The notes below the pieces were generated by a model. The model saw only the letters and a list, made by a program, of their open reading frames with translations. It searched no databases and had not been told where the DNA came from. This document shows, one piece after another, positions 2,856-37,143 of a stretch of 38,253 nt of DNA. This DNA is from a virus (Duplodnaviria > Heunggongvirae > Uroviricota > Caudoviricetes). Made by a program: the position numbers and the translations under genes. Each line of letters opens with the position of its first letter. Positions within the stretch are counted from its first letter, which is position 1. The stretch lies in IMG/VR virus record IMGVR_UViG_2778261538_000002; one strand, given 5' to 3'.

Positions 2856-3074
2856 TCAAAGAGAGAGCGCCACCTGTCCTGATTTCATTGGATGCGGCTG
2901 AACCGGATTTGACTCTTTTGGCGTTGCAATCGAACGAACAAAAGTTTCATGGGTAACAAAAGTATGGCTGCAGTTAATGTTCTGGCACTGGTTGTAACGC
3001 TCTTTGGTCAATGAAGATACCTGAAAACTGCTGCGAGTATGGGCGGCACTTCCACACAGTGGGCAAATCATCAT
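2856..3074 (-). CDS. ogr: late gene transcriptional activator (Ogr/Delta zinc-finger family)
   Basis: about 72 aa from the tandem Met; CPLCG...CQNINC four-Cys zinc finger and KERY motif as in P2 Ogr; sits next to gene D as in P2. Confidence 0.8.
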   Translation of the reverse strand: MMICPLCGSAAHTRSSFQVSSLTKERYNQCQNINCSHTFVTHETFVRSIATPKESNPVQPHPMKSGQVALSL

Positions 3075-3164
3075 TTTTCGAGTTCTCCCCATTTTTGCTA
3101 AATTCACAATAATGATACCGCATTATTCCATTTTGCAAACTTAAAAGTTCTCCATTGCGAAGAA

Positions 3165-24266: not shown

Positions 24267-25346
24267 CTAACATTGTTTACATAAATCAGAAAAACTACCA
24301 CCGAAATAATACAGTGCAGATTTATCATTTAGTTCTTTAAAAACTTCACACGCACGCTGGTGTATCTCAATAGCACTAGATTTATTTCGTCCAATAATAA
24401 CAGTCTCTTTTTCAGTACTATCGCCATCCAGAAAAGTCTTCAAAAGAAAATTAATAATAAAGTCTTCCTTTGGGAAAGAATAACCTATAAAGATCAACAG
24501 ATCTGCTTGTCTCAACTGGGTAGAGGATTTCACAAAAGCTGTCTTAAAGTATTTATCCCCATAGTCTTGTTCATTTGAAGGCAAGATAATATTTGGAACA
24601 ACTTTTGCGTTCAATAATGAATCATAATCTATTTTAAAACCATCCCTTGCAGCAACAACCTCAAATCCTCCATTAAGCTTATACAAACCTATACCTTTAG
24701 GCTGAGGACACACTAATATATTATTATGATGCACAGGAAAACCCCGATTAACTGAACGTTCAGGGAATGCATGATGTAGCACTTTATCAATAACTATATC
24801 GTAGTTTGTTGTGACTACATCCAGTGCTGAAGCTTCCTGTAAACTCTTAAAGAAAGAAATAATATTCCTTTTATTCTGCCCAAATTTTGCAGTTTGACTT
24901 AGCTTTAAATCATTTGCCGGTATTTTTTTTGCAAACTTATTTTTTACATATAGTTTTACTTGTGCCTCAAACAACTCAAGCGTATGCCTATCAAGATACG
25001 ACGGCAATAAACTTGGATATCGCTTATAAACATCCAATGCATATTTAAAACTCTTGAAAACATTAGCTTTGTCATCTAAACCTGCATTAGCATCCGCCCA
25101 TTTAAATTTAAGACTGTCGAACAAAGAAAAAAAACCATACTCATCAATATTTTCTAATGCTTCGTCTTCAGAGATGGAAAAGACTTCATTACTCAATGGG
25201 TATTTGTCATCCCAGGCTTTAGAAAATCCTGCTCCGAGAAAAACACATACTCTTCGCTCTCTTATTTTTGATTTCAATGTGGCGAAGGATGTAATTTCTA
25301 AATTATTAGGTGTCAAAATATCACCATCATAAGCAAAGCTAGTCAT
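24267..25346 (-). CDS. SIR2-like domain protein (candidate NADase effector)
   Basis: 359 aa; RVCVFLGAGFS Rossmann motif near the N-terminus, TTNYD motif, His cluster (VLHH, PVHH) and IFIGYSFP motif, which I recognise as the SIR2_2 (PF13289-type) pattern; AT-rich; starts 14 nt after the ATPase stop. Confidence 0.7.
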   Translation of the reverse strand: MTSFAYDGDILTPNNLEITSFATLKSKIRERRVCVFLGAGFSKAWDDKYPLSNEVFSISEDEALENIDEYGFFSLFDSLKFKWADANAGLDDKANVFKSFKYALDVYKRYPSLLPSYLDRHTLELFEAQVKLYVKNKFAKKIPANDLKLSQTAKFGQNKRNIISFFKSLQEASALDVVTTNYDIVIDKVLHHAFPERSVNRGFPVHHNNILVCPQPKGIGLYKLNGGFEVVAARDGFKIDYDSLLNAKVVPNIILPSNEQDYGDKYFKTAFVKSSTQLRQADLLIFIGYSFPKEDFIINFLLKTFLDGDSTEKETVIIGRNKSSAIEIHQRACEVFKELNDKSALYYFGGSFSDLCKQC

Positions 25347-25359
25347 GTTTTTCTCACGC

Positions 25360-26589
25360 TTAGTTTTTTATATCAAGAAAAGCTGGAACTAATCCAAATT
25401 CGCCACGTAAATATTTGGCAGACACTTTAGCATCTTTCCTTACAGAAAATACCGTAGCATTAGTTATTATCGACGCTTTAGATGAATCCTTGACTATAAT
25501 ATTAAGCTCATCTCTTCTAAACACATCATCTAATAAAGGAATATTATGTGTAGACATAATAAACTGCACACCATTTTTACGGCAGGTTTTATCAAATATT
25601 TTTTTGATTAGTGCACTTGCCAAAGAATAGTGAATAGATGAATCTATTTCATCCACATAAAGTGTAAAATCATATTCACTAGCCCAAATCAATATTGCTA
25701 AAAATGTTAAAACATTTAGTGTGCCTTGGGAAAAAAATTCATCCCTACGGTCAGGGCCTATTCTAGTAAAATCACCATCATCATTTTTTATGAGATAAAC
25801 AAATTTATACTCATTATCTTCGCCAAATCTTACAAATTCAACTTTATCTATATGCAGCGGCGACTGAATAACCATTTCATTATAGGTATTTAAAATTCTT
25901 TGACCACTCTCATTTAATTTTTCATTTCCTTCCTCACCTGATAACTGGCGCTTAAGTTGTCCTTCAACAAATTTAAGACTTGGATTTTTGAATTTTTCAG
26001 AGTAATAAGGCAATTGTTTTAATGCCCAGCGTTGGGTTTCAACAAGAGCATCAATTTCTAAAGATTTTGCAAAAGTTACAACAGCTCCACTTTCTCTTAA
26101 GACAGGATTAATCAACGACTCGTATTTTTTTAAGTCGGGCTTTTTGAAAACCAACCCATTTTCATTGCGAATAAAAATACATTGTTCCCTTGCACTTTTT
26201 CTTATCGGTCTAATGTATAAATACTCATCTACAATAACTTCATTTAAAACTGACACACCATAACGGACGAAGTTTTTTTGCTCTTCATCAATCAGTATCG
26301 CTTCATAGGAAGTAGGTTTGTTACGACATTCCTTATTTAGAAGGAAAGGCATATGCAATTTGTGTAATGTGTCACTATGAATTGAATTTGCAAATTCAGT
26401 AATAGCATTTATTAATTGTGTTTTACCAACACCATTTCCGCCTATTAATGCGGCAAATCTGTTTACTCTTAAACCATTCGCTAATGTCACGATATGTTCA
26501 GGATGCTCATCCCCAATTGAGGAAGCAAAACTAAGAACCTGTCTTTCGCGAAAGCTCTTGTAATTTTCTAAACTGAATGCAACTAGCAT
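25360..26589 (-). CDS. ABC/AAA_15-21-type ATPase (candidate defense sensor)
   Basis: 409 aa; Walker A GGNGVGKT, Walker B LYVDEID, H-loop-like FIMSTHN; GAGGA RBS; AT-rich; no TOPRIM or coiled-coil evident. Confidence 0.75.
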   Translation of the reverse strand: MLVAFSLENYKSFRERQVLSFASSIGDEHPEHIVTLANGLRVNRFAALIGGNGVGKTQLINAITEFANSIHSDTLHKLHMPFLLNKECRNKPTSYEAILIDEEQKNFVRYGVSVLNEVIVDEYLYIRPIRKSAREQCIFIRNENGLVFKKPDLKKYESLINPVLRESGAVVTFAKSLEIDALVETQRWALKQLPYYSEKFKNPSLKFVEGQLKRQLSGEEGNEKLNESGQRILNTYNEMVIQSPLHIDKVEFVRFGEDNEYKFVYLIKNDDGDFTRIGPDRRDEFFSQGTLNVLTFLAILIWASEYDFTLYVDEIDSSIHYSLASALIKKIFDKTCRKNGVQFIMSTHNIPLLDDVFRRDELNIIVKDSSKASIITNATVFSVRKDAKVSAKYLRGEFGLVPAFLDIKN

Positions 26590-27638: not shown

Positions 27639-27872
27639 TTAATGCAGCCAGCTGTCGTCTTCCCACACCTTCTGCATAATTTTCATCACTTGTTTTCTTT
27701 CTTCATCCAGTTGCAGTCCGGTCAGTTCCACACCGTTAGAGCTACCTTTACGGATACGAATTACCGTTTTGGGATACAGGGGGCGCAGATTGCGGTAAAG
27801 CTCGGATTCAAGGGCGTCCAGGGTAGACTGGCTAATCTTCTGCTCTTTATCGATCATTATTTCAATGCGCAT
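27639..27872 (-). CDS. DinI-family protein (C-terminal part of a 186 Tum-like SOS module)
   Basis: 77 aa from Met25 of ORF 27639-27944 (MRIEIMIDKEQ ... WEDDSWLH), clearly DinI-like. Confidence 0.75.
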   Translation of the reverse strand: MRIEIMIDKEQKISQSTLDALESELYRNLRPLYPKTVIRIRKGSSNGVELTGLQLDEERKQVMKIMQKVWEDDSWLH

Positions 27873-27882
27873 AAAAGTCACC

Positions 27883-28071
27883 TCAACTGATGACATCCAT
27901 TGAGCGGTTGTATTCGTGGGTTCTGATTTTTGCCATGAGTTCATCTGTCAGTTCAGAAACCCACTGCAGGGCCAGCCCCTTCTCTTCATCACTACACTCA
28001 CTAGCCGCTACAAGCTTAAGAAAAAAATCAATGCGCTGGAGCTTCAAAGACTCCAAAAAATAGTCCTGCAT
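27883..28071 (-). CDS. small protein upstream of the DinI-like gene (possible Tum N-terminal/antirepressor part)
   Basis: 62 aa from Met35 of ORF 27883-28173; AGGAGG RBS; overlaps the DinI-like ORF out of frame. Confidence 0.55.
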   Translation of the reverse strand: MQDYFLESLKLQRIDFFLKLVAASECSDEEKGLALQWVSELTDELMAKIRTHEYNRSMDVIS

Positions 28072-32780: not shown

Positions 32781-33290
32781 TCACAGCAAACCGAATGAAG
32801 CACCGAGGCCAGTCACGGTATCAACCGCACTCGCCATCGCAGGGTTAGCCTGTAAACGGGCCTGCAATGAAACAGCAGCCAGCGCCATCAGTCGTGTTAC
32901 AGAGTTAATGCTGCTGATGGCATCACGACGACCTGCACTGGTTTTTACATCGCCAGATACCGCACCTGCAGCAACACGCCCGATCTCTGCGGTTGCACTC
33001 ATGACGTAATGTGGCAGTTTCTCTTTTGCCACCTCATTAATCGGCACACATGGCAGACAATGAATCTGAGCCAAAAAACCATCTACCAGCGTCGAATCTT
33101 CAGTCAGATCGGTAAGCAACCAGATTTCTGGTGCGGTTAATAAATGAGGTTGAGCTGGGTTCAGCTTGTTCCGCAGGATCTGCACATTCATGCCTGCACG
33201 TTCTGCCAGTTGCACCAGGTTGTGGCGCAGTGCGAATGCACGACAGGCTTCATCAAAATGTGGATGTTTGGAAACTTGGTAATCAAACAT
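32781..33290 (-). CDS. cII: CII-like lysogeny establishment protein
   Basis: 169 aa from Met19 ([20 protein letters not shown]...), nearly identical to coliphage 186 CII as I recall it. Confidence 0.85.
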
Positions 33291-33322
33291 AGTCGCCCCT
33301 CTTGATGTACCCCAAAATGGAA

Positions 33323-33544
33323 CTAGTTGAATACAACATTGCAATCAGTAAGTGCATCAACGGTAAGAGCAGCAAGGTTGATCATTACCTTTTCCCTTTT
33401 CTTGTCTTTCCGAAGGCGATGGCGAGGGATGCGACCATCTGCCAGCATATCGTTGATTGTGTCGATTGAAAGGCCAGTAAGTTCGCTATAACGCTCGATT
33501 GTGACGTGTGGCGTATTCAGAGTTATTGAAATGTTAGGTGTCAT
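33323..33544 (-). CDS. apl: Apl/Cox-like excisionase-repressor
   Basis: 73-aa HTH protein, first gene of the lytic operon, divergent from the repressor gene. Confidence 0.75.
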
Positions 33545-33632
33545 GATGCAACATCTCCTTTTAGCTTGTGGTGAGCTGGTTTTAATCGTGATAACAACAT
33601 CACAAAACGGAGAATAGGTTCACATAACGAAC
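33545..33632. promoter_or_regulatory. lysis-lysogeny switch region (pR/pL and operators)
   Basis: 88-bp interval between apl and the repressor gene; architecture by analogy with 186; individual promoters not resolved. Confidence 0.5.
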
Positions 33633-34583
33633 ATGTCAACTCAAAAATTCACATTTCGCCATATCAAAGAGGATGCGAAAGCCATTGTTATGCAGAATCG
33701 TGGGGGACAGAAAGTCATTGAGCGAATACTCAAAGCTTATGGCTTCAAGTCACGCCAAGCGTTCTGTAACCATCTTGGTATTTCACAAAGTACGATGGCC
33801 AATAGATATGCTCGCGATACATTTCCTGCTGATTGGGTTGTTATATGCTCAATGGAAACAGGAGCATCTTTGGAATGGCTGGCGTTTGGTTCTGATGCGG
33901 CAGAAGAAATACTCTCAACTGCTCCAAATGGATACAACGAAGACGACCAGCGAGATGACGTTGAAAGTGACAATCATATACCTTCCTTTAATTTTCATAA
34001 TGATCATCAAGTCGATTTCAATCAGGGAGGAAAAGCGGCAATAGAACGGATAGTTAAGGCTTATGGCTTTAAAACTCGTCAAGCACTGGCAGATCATCTT
34101 GGTATATCAAAAAGTACATTAGCTACACGCTATATGCGTGACTCATTCCCTGCTGATTGGATAATACAGTGTGCCCTTGAAACTGGATTCTCATTGAAAT
34201 GGCTTGTTGATGGGCAAGGACTTAATAAAAGTTCACAAAATGAAAACATTGTGTGCATAAACAAGTACGTGCTTGCCGATGGTGCACTCGAAATGAAGGG
34301 TAACTACATTTTTGATAAGTCCTTTGTACCTAAGTCGATTAAAGATCCAATGTTAATATTTGATGGCAGCAGGATATACTTAGCTGAGGGGAACTTTGAC
34401 GAAATTAGCGATGGATTGTGGTTTGTTGAAATTGAAGGAAAAATCAGTGTTCGCGAGGTAATAAGAATACCGGTAGGTAAAGTAAGAGTAACGAGCTCAA
34501 ACTCAAATATTACTTTTGACTGTGCAATTAATGAACTCAAACCGGTTGCAAAATGCCAGTTCAACCTAATGACTATAATATAA
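33633..34583 (+). CDS. cI: CI-type immunity repressor with duplicated N-terminal HTH domain
   Basis: 316 aa; two tandem copies of a 186-CI-like HTH module (ERILKAYGFKSRQAF...HLGISQSTMANRY..FPADW and ERIVKAYGFKTRQAL...HLGISKSTLATRY..FPADW) plus a CI-like C-terminal domain. Confidence 0.8.
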   Translation: MSTQKFTFRHIKEDAKAIVMQNRGGQKVIERILKAYGFKSRQAFCNHLGISQSTMANRYARDTFPADWVVICSMETGASLEWLAFGSDAAEEILSTAPNGYNEDDQRDDVESDNHIPSFNFHNDHQVDFNQGGKAAIERIVKAYGFKTRQALADHLGISKSTLATRYMRDSFPADWIIQCALETGFSLKWLVDGQGLNKSSQNENIVCINKYVLADGALEMKGNYIFDKSFVPKSIKDPMLIFDGSRIYLAEGNFDEISDGLWFVEIEGKISVREVIRIPVGKVRVTSSNSNITFDCAINELKPVAKCQFNLMTII

Positions 34584-34614: not shown

Positions 34615-35733
34615 ATGTCTAGAAGTTTTGCTATTTGGGGATGCCGAAACTACGCTAAAGGCCCAGGAGAGGATTATAATGAGACTCAAGCAGATTTTAT
34701 AAACGAACTACACATCAACTTTTGGAATATCACATCCCAAAAATGCTATCATCTAGATTTTGGCATATCATTTTCTCGCCCCCAAGATAATGAAATTTCA
34801 GAACAGGGTGCAATCTGTTTATTTTTACCGTTTGTAAAAGAAAAAGATGACTTCATTGATTTAAGTACGAACCTAGATAGCAGCAAAGAACTGATCACCG
34901 CGGTTTTTAATGAATACGTCATAAATAAAGACTCAATAAACGAGAAACACTTATTATTAAATTTAACACGAAAAGGTAAACTAATAGTTAATACAAAACT
35001 TGATTTTCAAGGGGGGGCATTCGACAAAAGAATCACATTGAGAAAGAGGAATGATGGGACATATGTATTTTTCCATCTGCAGGATTGTTTGTCTAATTGC
35101 AATAATTGCAATTACTACATCAGATTCAGAATTAACCTAAATGAATCTGATGTTGAAGCAATTGTTAAAACATTCTATCCAAAAGATTTATTCTTAAAAA
35201 GCAATATTGAACGTTCTGATATTATAGATTTCAGAATTAACGAACAAAGAAATTTGCCAAACGAAGTCGCAACCACACTGGCCAGCGCCTCTTGCACTCC
35301 AAGCAAATATCATTTTTTCGTTATACGAGATATGGTTGACGAAGCATCGGCATCAGGTTCAAGCTATCAAGGTTGTCGTATTCTTGAATCAGAGACATGG
35401 AAAAAATACTTTTCAAATAATGTCAATTTTGGTAAGAACGATCCTATGATTTACCACTGGAAAGCTAAAAAGGATGATGGCGCACGGCTAGGTGACTTCT
35501 CTGTAGTAGTGAAGTTCAAGACTACTAAATCAAAAATTAGTAAAATATTTACATATATGTTCTATGCTGCAGCCATAGCATACATAATGAAATTTATTCC
35601 AACAGATGGTGTGCATAAAGACATTTATCTAATTTGCACCATTGCATTTATTGTAGCTTACATTGCCGCTCACTTTATTAAACCACAAAAATTATCCAAC
35701 TTTATTGCACTGGTGAAAAAATGGAAAAATTAA
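34615..35733 (+). CDS. hypothetical protein with C-terminal transmembrane helices (cargo gene 1)
   Basis: 372 aa; large soluble N-terminal region, two hydrophobic helices near the C-terminus; AT-rich; 32 nt after the cI stop. Confidence 0.7.
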   Translation: MSRSFAIWGCRNYAKGPGEDYNETQADFINELHINFWNITSQKCYHLDFGISFSRPQDNEISEQGAICLFLPFVKEKDDFIDLSTNLDSSKELITAVFNEYVINKDSINEKHLLLNLTRKGKLIVNTKLDFQGGAFDKRITLRKRNDGTYVFFHLQDCLSNCNNCNYYIRFRINLNESDVEAIVKTFYPKDLFLKSNIERSDIIDFRINEQRNLPNEVATTLASASCTPSKYHFFVIRDMVDEASASGSSYQGCRILESETWKKYFSNNVNFGKNDPMIYHWKAKKDDGARLGDFSVVVKFKTTKSKISKIFTYMFYAAAIAYIMKFIPTDGVHKDIYLICTIAFIVAYIAAHFIKPQKLSNFIALVKKWKN

Positions 35734-36800
35734 AACACATTCAGTTTAATGAAGTTAATTTTAACGATGTTTTTTTTGACTCCTTAAAAAAAGACTATCA
35801 ACATGGATTTATCGATTGGTTCAATAAAAAATGTAATTCTATCGAAGAAAAAGCTTATGTCTTATATAATGATGACAACACAATTGATGGTTTTTTATAC
35901 TTGAAAATTGAGCGTGGTATTATTGACGACGTAATACCACCTTTGACTCGTGCTAAACATCTAAAAATAGGCACATTTAAATTCAACCCGAAGGGGACTC
36001 TACGAGGACAAAGATTCCTCAAAAAGATTTTTGATCATGCACTAAAAGAAAAAGTAGATGATATCTATGTGACTGTTTTTGAAAAACATGATTATTTAAT
36101 TAGACTATTCAAAATTTATGGTTTTATTCATGTTGCTACAAAACAAACTGCTAATGGTAGTGAACAAGTCTTAGTAAGAGAGATGAATAAAAATCATCTT
36201 ACAGGGGATATTTTGTCTGATTATCCGTATATAAATAATAGCAACGATGAAAACAAATATCTGTTATCCATATATCCTGAATTCCATACAAAACTGTTTC
36301 CTGATTCGATACTCACCACAGAGTCCCCTGATATAATCACGGATGTATCTCATGCGAATAGCATTAGAAAAATATATATATGCAGAATGCATGACGTAAA
36401 AAAAATAAAAAGACATGACATTTTAGTTATTTACAGAACAAGTGACAAAGAAAACAGAGCGTATTATCGCTCTGTCGCAACGTCATTATGTGTAGTTGAA
36501 GATATTAGACATATTGATTCTTTTTATAGTGAAAAAGAATTCATACAGTATTGTACACGATACAGTGTATTCTCTGAAAATGAATTAAAAAAATCCTATC
36601 AAACAAAAAGATACCCTTACATTATTAGTTTTACATATAATCTAGCTTTACCTAAAAGAATAAACCGTGCTAAACTAATCAAAGAAATTGGTTTAAATCC
36701 TAAAAACCGTTGGGGTGTTGTTAAATTAACCGATGAGCAATTTGACGATATAATTAAACTTGGTGCTGTAGATGAAAGTATTATTGTCAATAAAACCTGA
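35721..36800 (+). CDS. hypothetical protein, N-terminal GNAT-like fold fused to an unknown C-terminal domain (cargo gene 2)
   Basis: 359 aa; N-terminal 150 aa have GNAT-like topology (…KIGTFKF…RGQRFLKKIF…YLIRLFKIYGF…); overlaps neighbouring genes at both ends. Confidence 0.65.
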   Translation: MEKLKHIQFNEVNFNDVFFDSLKKDYQHGFIDWFNKKCNSIEEKAYVLYNDDNTIDGFLYLKIERGIIDDVIPPLTRAKHLKIGTFKFNPKGTLRGQRFLKKIFDHALKEKVDDIYVTVFEKHDYLIRLFKIYGFIHVATKQTANGSEQVLVREMNKNHLTGDILSDYPYINNSNDENKYLLSIYPEFHTKLFPDSILTTESPDIITDVSHANSIRKIYICRMHDVKKIKRHDILVIYRTSDKENRAYYRSVATSLCVVEDIRHIDSFYSEKEFIQYCTRYSVFSENELKKSYQTKRYPYIISFTYNLALPKRINRAKLIKEIGLNPKNRWGVVKLTDEQFDDIIKLGAVDESIIVNKT

Positions 36801-37143
36801 ATTTGTTGAAAAAATCCTTAATGGGACGAAGAAGTTTGAATTCAGGAAAGGTATTTTTAAAAAACCGGATGTAAAATCTGTGGTTATTTATTCAACAATG
36901 CCTGTCGGTAAAGTTGTTGCTGAATTTGACATTGCAGATGTTATAGAAGATAAGCCGAGTATTGTATGGGAAAAAACAAGCCAATACGCAGGTATCAGTA
37001 AACAATTTTTTGACTCTTATTTTCATAGCAAAGAAAAAGCCTTTGCTATAGAAATTGGTAATCTAAAAATCTATGACCAACCACTTCATCTAAGTTCATT
37101 AGGTGATAACATAACGGCCCCGCAATCATATCGGTACTTATGA
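36772..37143 (+). CDS. ASCH-domain protein (cargo gene 3)
   Basis: 123 aa; MKVLLSIKPEFVEKILNGTKKFEFRK is a typical ASCH N-terminus. Confidence 0.7.
   Translation: MKVLLSIKPEFVEKILNGTKKFEFRKGIFKKPDVKSVVIYSTMPVGKVVAEFDIADVIEDKPSIVWEKTSQYAGISKQFFDSYFHSKEKAFAIEIGNLKIYDQPLHLSSLGDNITAPQSYRYL

Follow-up and report, generated by a model that had tools for sequence, protein, structure and literature searches.

IMG/VR virus record IMGVR_UViG_2778261538_000002 is a stretch of 38,253 nucleotides, called the window below, that holds a 186-like prophage (Peduoviridae) of E. coli. Its immunity repressor gene, cI, encodes a variant of the CI repressor of coliphage 186 with two helix-turn-helix (HTH) domains per subunit. 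The reading put forward here, to which we give a probability of roughly 0.6, is that the protein is a working immunity repressor in which an extra CI-type HTH module, consisting of an N-terminal leader and a first HTH domain (D1), has been fused in frame to a complete CI, consisting of a second HTH domain (D2) and the C-terminal domain (CTD). 186 CI is the textbook model for cooperative, wheel-like repression and promoter interference, and a natural, abundant version of it in which each subunit reads DNA with two different heads would make twice as many DNA contacts per wheel. Two-headed CIs are common in enterobacterial prophages and form an uncharacterised variant of this well-known repressor family; literature searches returned no description of 186-type CIs with two HTH domains.

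Domain organization of the repressor

The gene and its parts are listed below, with positions in the window and protein lengths in amino acids (aa).

33633–34583, plus strand: cI, immunity repressor with two HTH domains, 316 aa plus stop (open reading frame (ORF), Pfam; best solved-structure match 186 CI, 2fjr)
33633–33695, plus strand: N-terminal leader, residues 1–21; its DNA overlaps the −35 box of the putative lytic promoter pR and candidate operator site 3
33696–33890, plus strand: D1, first HTH domain, residues 22–86, recognition helix SQSTMANRYARD (Pfam, BLASTP, AlphaFold2)
33891–34019, plus strand: linker, residues 87–129, acidic and predicted to be disordered (model confidence, charge)
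34020–34214, plus strand: D2, second HTH domain, residues 130–194, recognition helix SKSTLATRYMRD (Pfam, BLASTP)
34257–34580, plus strand: CTD, residues 209–316, beta-rich oligomerisation domain of the 186 CI type (PF16452, Foldseek)

An earlier reading of the letters of the window alone (the sequence-only reading) had described a CI-like immunity repressor, longer than 186 CI because the 186-type HTH module occurs twice ahead of a single CI-like CTD. This description holds. The ORF starts with ATG and lies upstream of int, divergent from an apl/cox-like gene and cII. Pfam recognizes PF07022 (Phage_CI_repr) in two separate stretches (E 5.3e-60 overall), followed by PF16452 (Phage_CI_C) at residues 209–308 (E 2.2e-25), and a hidden Markov model built from single-domain relatives recovers both HTH stretches at 115 and 148 bits. 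PF07022 covers the second copy as well as the first. Residues 22–86 and 130–194 align without gaps, with 42 of 65 positions identical (65%; BLASTP E 7e-33), and the pattern AYGFK[ST]RQA..HLGIS[QK]ST[ML]A[NT]RY..FPADW is found in both copies, as had been noted. 186 CI, for which a length of about 190 aa had been given, has 192 aa and a single PF07022 domain. Compared to the canonical 186-type CI, with one HTH domain per subunit of about 190 aa, the window CI has two in 316 aa, and is an architectural variant of this family and not its canonical form.

The best solved relative is 186 CI (PDB 2FJR, 2FKD), which combines a PF07022 HTH domain with a PF16452 CTD; D2 plus CTD align to residues 10–180 of 2fjr. 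An AlphaFold2 model, built on 41 relatives and covering the monomer only, consists of three independent folded units: a five-helix D1 with a short leader helix ahead of it, a five-helix D2, and a beta-rich CTD. The predicted local distance difference test score (pLDDT) is about 90 or more over most of the CTD and below 50 for residues 89–128 between D1 and D2; together with a predicted template modelling score (pTM) of 0.39, this low linker confidence means that no packing between the domains is predicted. The CTD superimposes on 2fkd_A with a template modelling (TM) score of 0.88 and a root-mean-square deviation of 2.0 Å, at a sequence identity to the 186 CTD of about 28–31%, and the N-terminal domain of 186 CI is only about 36–39% identical to those of the window. 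A difference from 186 CI is the presence of two HTH domains joined by a disordered, acidic tether of about 40 aa. In 42 relatives the linker measures 35–46 aa and its net charge is always negative (−1 to −11, with −11 in the closest relative, L043); such a combination of unconserved sequence with kept length and charge is what one would expect of a tether whose length matters.

That the 186 CTD can serve as a modular scaffold is illustrated by an engineered lambda–186 hybrid repressor (PDB 7JVT), in which a foreign N-terminal domain is placed on it. The window CTD matches 7JVT both in sequence (E 1e-10) and in fold (Foldseek E about 1e-11). The hybrid differs from the window CI in being man-made and single-headed, its head being replaced rather than added. 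Other repressor types match less well. LexA and lambda CI carry a Peptidase S24 domain with a Ser-Lys dyad and a site for RecA-stimulated cleavage. The window CI has no S24 match in Pfam, the dyad residues not having been inspected singly, and its CTD shows only distant fold similarity to LexA (E 3e-6 at 10% identity). An identity as a P2 C-type repressor (about 99 aa, single domain) was rejected on the domain content, which is that of the CI type; the candidate operators in the window are nevertheless same-strand repeats, and P2 C likewise binds direct repeats.

The true start codon of cI is uncertain. The leader frame is open in all 42 distinct sequences, from an ATG equivalent to M1, and the leader is weakly constrained as protein. 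For some homologues PGAP places the start at an internal Met equivalent to M20 of the window protein, as in locus L123 (1888–2766; E. coli KBN10P04869), which gives a protein of 292 aa. Annotation pipelines label all two-headed proteins ‘phage repressor protein CI’ and disagree on where they start. An internal start that would give a separate D2–CTD protein was considered and rejected as a general feature, as the window has a Val codon (GTC) in place of the ancestral Met, and no internal start codon able to yield such a protein was found in it.

Distribution of two-headed CIs and selection on their domains

The sequence-only reading had allowed for the possibility that the repeat is a misassembled direct repeat. 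At the DNA level the copies agree at 64% of positions and at 38% of third codon positions, and no run longer than 12 nt is common to both. Misassembly or a recent tandem duplication is ruled out by this low identity, by the saturated third positions and by the many independent records. A protein identical to it, named ‘phage repressor protein CI [Escherichia coli]’, is at the head of a cluster that occurs on 36 contigs from several sources. Among the 120 best-matching protein clusters at 90% identity, 44 have two HTH domains; 42 of these are full-length and together comprise about 1,580 member sequences, from Escherichia, Salmonella, Klebsiella, Citrobacter, Enterobacter, Kosakonia and Edwardsiella. 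The architecture had been called unusual for this family, which as a statement of frequency does not stand. D1-specific peptides matched 243 stretches in IMG/VR, a number that includes a single-HTH class of about 207 aa. A separate scan of genome contigs gave almost only single-HTH loci, which served as comparators, and no further two-headed ones.

Two-headed CIs are also present, annotated as repressors, in phage genome records, namely those of Klebsiella phage 4LV2017 (ARB15674, 313 aa), of the ST437-OXA245phi4.2 group of Klebsiella phages and of Salmonella phage PSP3 (AAN08403, 286 aa, annotated ‘immunity repressor’). Like the window CI, the proteins of PSP3 and 4LV2017 combine two PF07022 domains with one PF16452 domain. 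PSP3 is thus an example of a viable phage with this architecture. From apl through D2, the DNA of 4LV2017 is about 83% identical to that of the window. The heads of PSP3 are of other types (helices AKHSVSGWVQRD and SSGTISTWVRRD), and the CTDs of both phages differ from that of the window. Judged by these helices, the two-headed CI of PSP3 probably reflects a separate origin. PsP3 CI has been described as having ‘a longer C-terminal domain’ (Nilsson et al. 2011, PMC3448106). Set against the two PF07022 domains of this protein (L041, 1453–2313), this wording looks like a misread alignment.

Selection was analyzed on 42 distinct two-headed genes, in which synonymous divergence is near saturation (pS about 0.67). 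The ratio of nonsynonymous to synonymous divergence (pN/pS) differs strongly between the parts of the protein:

D1: pN/pS 0.10
D2: pN/pS 0.22
Linker: pN/pS 0.76, with 28% amino-acid identity
Hinge between D2 and CTD: pN/pS 0.82
CTD: pN/pS 0.65, with 39% identity among relatives

The recognition helices are the most conserved stretches of both heads. Both heads are under strong purifying selection, in line with both being functional. That the gene is an artefact, be it a misassembled direct repeat or a functionless accidental fusion decaying in a defective prophage, is so improbable that it hardly counts as an alternative. Nothing was found in its favour apart from the inconsistent PGAP start calls for homologues, and it is opposed by the divergence of the two copies, by the recurrence of the identical protein and of the same architecture, by the selection on both heads and by the two-headed CIs of PSP3 and 4LV2017.

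A second alternative is that one of the heads does not bind DNA here and acts as a regulatory or decoy module, for example as a target or mimic of a Tum/DinI-like antirepressor, or as an autoinhibitory partner. The acidic linker and the presence of a DinI/Tum-like gene in the window (27639–27944) are in line with this idea. It is nonetheless improbable, because both helix types also occur as the sole DNA-binding domain of single-HTH CIs, because the recognition helices are the parts of both domains that vary least, and because the model, with its low pTM, predicts no packing of D1 against D2.

A pattern of another kind is seen in the cI genes of loci L043–L101. In these, the heads share 79–89% amino-acid identity, and the hinge and the oligomerisation domain (equivalent to window 34215–34580) share 24–39%, with a similarity breakpoint inside or just after D2. 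Conserved heads with a hypervariable CTD are the reverse of what is usual for immunity genes.

Origin of the two heads

Three classes of single-HTH CI are informative about the origin of the window CI: a class of about 207 aa beginning ‘MSTxxITxRH’, a 190-aa class beginning ‘MNLEKGGRG’ and a 198-aa class beginning ‘MSTSKYPNEIKINPN’. The ~207-aa class has its leader, a D1-type helix and pR-proximal TCACA sites in common with the window, while the 190-aa and 198-aa classes have a D2-type helix, the hinge and the CTD in common with it. Leader plus D1 are 82–86% identical to the N-terminus of the ~207-aa class, including the same helix, SQSTMANRYAR(D/N); D2 is 82–83% identical to the sole HTH domain of the other two classes, with helices SKSTLATRYMRD and SKSTLANRYMRD. 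Each of these single-HTH classes has one head, whereas the window CI combines one head from each side. The switch DNA around the gene is a mosaic as well: its pR-proximal part is common to the ~207-aa class, and the apl gene and the pL-side DNA are common to the 198-aa class. The D2–CTD part is 78% identical to that of the 190-aa CI P0027, and the cargo gene downstream of the 190-aa cI at locus L038 is 84% identical (in aa) to the 372-aa cargo gene of the window. From these two similarities it follows that the cargo moves jointly with the 3′ half of cI, and that a recombination breakpoint lies inside D2.

The junction is still visible in relatives. D2 starts where a complete cI formerly had its N-terminus: NENHMEFTRGGK of 4LV2017 is the counterpart of MDFNTGGK in the single-HTH protein P0076, the old Met is kept at the start of D2 in 4LV2017 and L056, and the leader KYPNEIKINPN of the 198-aa class is kept in other relatives, where KFPIEIKINPNQGGK corresponds to MSTSKYPNEIKINPNQGGK. 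DNA homology to the single-HTH cI genes begins at codons 2–5, and none was found upstream of the ATG. As a possible FL-like site, a relic of the pR and operators of the D2 donor was sought within the linker. The motif of the 198-aa class, CCCAAATG(G/A)G, occurs at +344/+353 only in L070–L072 and is not present in the window, and this candidate was dropped.

The same recognition helix is found in both heads in none of the 76 distinct two-headed proteins, and all common helix types are also found as the lone helix type of single-HTH CIs. Helix types can occupy either position: the T-type, which is D2 in the window, serves as D1 in the Edwardsiella protein P0044, whose D2 is of the SNSTLANRYLRD type (SN-type) that P0033 has as D1, and PSP3 carries a fourth pair of types. 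The simplest reading of these sequences is a repeated in-frame fusion of heterotypic heads and not an intragenic duplication. The term ‘tandemly duplicated’ of the sequence-only reading is thus not supported, as the copies belong to two HTH lineages, each of which also exists as the lone HTH of single-domain CIs, and D2 begins at an old cI N-terminus. A better account of the sequences is that heterotypic modules were fused in frame, or that the duplication is very old.

Two tandem cI genes are found at loci L065–L068 (e.g., L066, 1875–3424). There, a 191-aa single-HTH cI adjoins apl, and 50 bp after it follows a 307-aa two-headed cI without a promoter region of its own, and then a gene for a 505-aa KAP-NTPase-like protein. 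It is possible that this arrangement shows one route to fusion.

Promoters and candidate operators

The regulatory features around the start of cI are the following.

33611–33639, minus strand: putative lytic promoter pR, with −35 TTGACA at 33639–33634 over the cI ATG, a 17-nt spacer, and −10 TATTCT at 33616–33611
33600–33609, plus strand: candidate operator site 1, TCACAAAACG, next to the pR −10 on its downstream side; kept across the two-headed and ~207-aa classes
33620–33629, plus strand: candidate operator site 2, TCACATAACG, within the spacer between the pR −35 and −10
33649–33658, plus strand: candidate operator site 3, TCACATTTCG, upstream of the pR −35, in cI codons 6–9
33588–33603, no strand assigned: inverted repeat GTGAT-N6-ATCAC, overlapping site 1 (sequence scan)
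33542–33547, plus strand: putative pL −10 (CATGAT), overlapping the apl start codon (by homology with the annotated pL −10 of 186)

The putative pR was found with a sigma-70-like promoter scan (10/12 matches), is placed with respect to cI like the annotated pR of 186, and is conserved in relatives. The order of genes is also that of 186, i.e., the int side, cI, divergent apl and cII, with pR abutting the cI start and candidate operators over pR. The cI–apl gap is 88 bp in the window and 129 bp in 186. Operators had been anticipated in this gap, and candidate TCACAWWWCG sites are indeed found there, at 33600 and 33620 around pR, with a further one at 33649 inside cI. In the whole window the exact motif occurs at these three positions only, all on one strand and spaced 20 and 29 bp apart, a count that is circular when taken alone as the motif was derived from the same three sites. 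The organization differs from that of 186, which has three inverted repeats two helical turns apart.

The case for these sites comes from comparison. They are conserved in the two-headed and ~207-aa classes. Codons 1–12 of cI, which hold the −35 and site 3, show a synonymous variation of 0.13–0.21 bits, versus about 1.1 bits elsewhere; in the scan for synonymous-site conservation only these codons stand out, and embedded DNA elements inside D1 or D2 were rejected on this basis. Site 3 has decayed to TTAAAATTTAGCC in the two-headed cI copies of L065–L068, which lack a pR. In addition, a pair of sites 29 bp apart, one on either side of the −35, is seen again in other immunity types (L127, L038), whose site sequences are quite different. 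At positions equivalent to the window sites, the 198-aa class has CCCAAATG(G/A)G; as these sequences differ, D1-type and 198-type phages probably differ in immunity. The T-type sites of 190-class phages, (A/T)TCAC-N5-..., share a TCAC core with the window sites.

Apart from one exception (L101), the sequence of site 2 follows the D2 helix type across three groups. As proof that D2 binds site 2 this covariation was rejected: the D1 DNA falls into the same three groups, so that shared ancestry is a confound. The GTGA(C/T) arm of the inverted repeat at 33588–33603 belongs to the left module common to the 198-aa class, its spacer being 5–7 nt among relatives, and at pL the string tCATGATGCAA is conserved in all CI classes.

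186 has distal FL and FR sites about 300 bp away. A search of the window gave no palindrome that clearly resembles FL or FR, and no candidate could be placed convincingly; the isolated, weak matches TCACAAAATG in the hinge (34233) and TCCAAATGGA in the linker (33923) lack support from conservation. A CI site at the B/ogr promoter was likewise rejected, as a single TTCACA upstream of the B homologue (2856–3077) is not significant.

Proposed mechanism of a two-headed repressor

186 CI dimers assemble into a 14-mer wheel, around which DNA is wrapped cooperatively (PMC3675496). By analogy, the CTD of the window CI would oligomerise in the same way, with dimers forming a wheel and the heads displayed on its outside. 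D1 would read the three TCACAWWWCG sites that it was inherited with. As these sites flank and fill pR, their occupation would shut off pR and relieve the convergent pL. D2 would keep a second DNA specificity, namely that of the 190-aa and 198-aa classes. Its role can be pictured in two ways that are not mutually exclusive. Firstly, D2 might make extra contacts at the prophage's own switch, at site 2 in the pR spacer and on the pL side. This version is favoured because the two site types share the TCAC core and because no D2-type sites were found elsewhere in the window. Secondly, D2 might repress superinfecting heteroimmune phages of the 190/198 type. In favour of this version are the head pairs, which are always heterotypic, the circulation of both head types as stand-alone immunities in the same hosts, and the occurrence of the two-headed cI as an extra gene in the cargo hotspot. 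Such an extra copy, downstream of a normal cI, fits an immunity role in trans. Whichever version of the D2 role holds, the window CI would be a repressor with two specificities. The suggestion of the sequence-only reading that a second head changes operator use or immunity specificity is plausible.

A more general, and tentative, proposal is that 186-like prophages build naturally bispecific immunity repressors by fusing heteroimmune heads on one oligomerising scaffold, a form of ‘immunity stacking’ in which some of the repressors would be present as an extra cI in a defence-cargo hotspot. If so, one prophage could silence its own lytic promoter as well as the superinfecting phages of a second immunity group. 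The architecture poses the question of whether immunity to a second group of phages can be gained by adding a rival's DNA-binding head. On a practical level, predictions of immunity groups from a single HTH domain would be wrong for the two-headed subfamily.

A rival to this picture, possible though doubtful, is avidity for a single target. Both heads would then bind the prophage's own switch only, at related half-sites with a TCAC core, so that the oligomer would occupy or wrap more of the pR–pL DNA, and there would be no role against other phages. The core shared by the Q-type (TCACAWWWCG) and T-type ((A/T)TCAC-N5-..) sites speaks for it, as do site 2 of the window (GGTTCACATAACGAAC), which resembles T-type sites and differs from the consensus of the ~207-aa class, GGATCACAAAACG, and a conserved tether length of about 40 aa, which would let D1 reach a neighbouring site 20–29 bp off. 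It is also in agreement with the lack of a separate D2-type operator elsewhere in the window. However, simple avidity should sometimes produce a pair of identical helices, and no such pair is present among the 76 proteins. Moreover, the single-HTH phages of the ~207-aa class carry the same three sites with one head, and two-headed cI genes also exist away from any pR of their own.

Several elements weigh against the fused, two-specificity repressor that we favour. By linkage, it is the outer, tethered D1 and not the head adjacent to the CTD that would match the prophage's own operators, which is awkward for a 186-style wheel. The CTD is very divergent, and wheel formation by the window CI is an assumption made by analogy. 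The support for TCACAWWWCG as an operator motif comes from conservation and not from its count. The window yielded no operator specific to D2: the motif of the 198-aa class, CCCAAATGGG, is missing at up to one mismatch, and palindromes like TTCAC-N5-GTGAA are not enriched (24 found versus 18.7 expected). The link between site 2 and the D2 helix, given its exception in L101 and its descent along the same clades as the D1 DNA, is a lead and not evidence. Lastly, D1-type and T-type sites share the TCAC core, so the two heads may overlap in specificity.

Neighbouring genes and cargo

The genes around the switch are as follows.

33323–33544, minus strand: apl/cox-like gene, 73 aa, first gene of the lytic operon (ORF, weak HTH_17 match, position as in 186)
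33310–33323, no strand assigned: conserved element CCCCAAAATGGAAC between the apl stop and the cII start (comparison of CI classes)
32781–33290, minus strand: cII (PF06892), likely start ATG at 33290 (ORF, Pfam)
37222 onward, plus strand: int (ORF, Pfam)

The early operon and the replication gene run leftwards from the switch, and to the right of cI follow a low-GC cargo block and then int. The same apl/cox-like gene occurs in the 198-aa class, which in addition has window-like pL-side DNA; the 190-aa locus L038 has the window-like cargo gene. All CI classes have kept the CCCCAAAATGGAAC element, including those with unrelated apl genes, and its position is that of operator FR and promoter pE of 186. 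It also resembles the pR-side motif of the 198-aa class, CCCCAAATGGGAAC.

The cargo block between cI and int (34615–37143, plus strand) has a GC content of 29–35%. It encodes the 372-aa protein, which has no family match and a hydrophobic C-terminal stretch, and two products that match the PADLOC candidate defence system PDC-M11, with component A at 35721–36800 (E 7e-139) and component B at 36772–37143 (E 2e-49). The contrast between conserved heads and swapped CTDs with defence cargo downstream bears on how defence islands move among P2/186-like prophages. A second cargo pair (24267–26589, minus strand) adjoins the portal gene and consists of a 409-aa AAA ATPase (PADLOC AbiLi, E 4e-50; AriA-like, E 4e-16) and a 359-aa SIR2-like protein (E 2e-9). 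From these matches it is probably another anti-phage module.

The C-terminal part of the 186 antirepressor Tum resembles DinI. In the ORF at 27639–27944 (minus strand) of the window, the C-terminal ~75 residues resemble DinI as well (NCBIfam NF007893, E 1e-10, below the curated cut-off), and its product could be an SOS-linked inducer acting on the window CI. At the left end, positions 1–2750 appear to be host DNA, with a 561-aa membrane transporter-like ORF at 935–2620, and the B/ogr-like zinc-finger gene of the prophage (2856–3077, minus strand) adjoins gene D.

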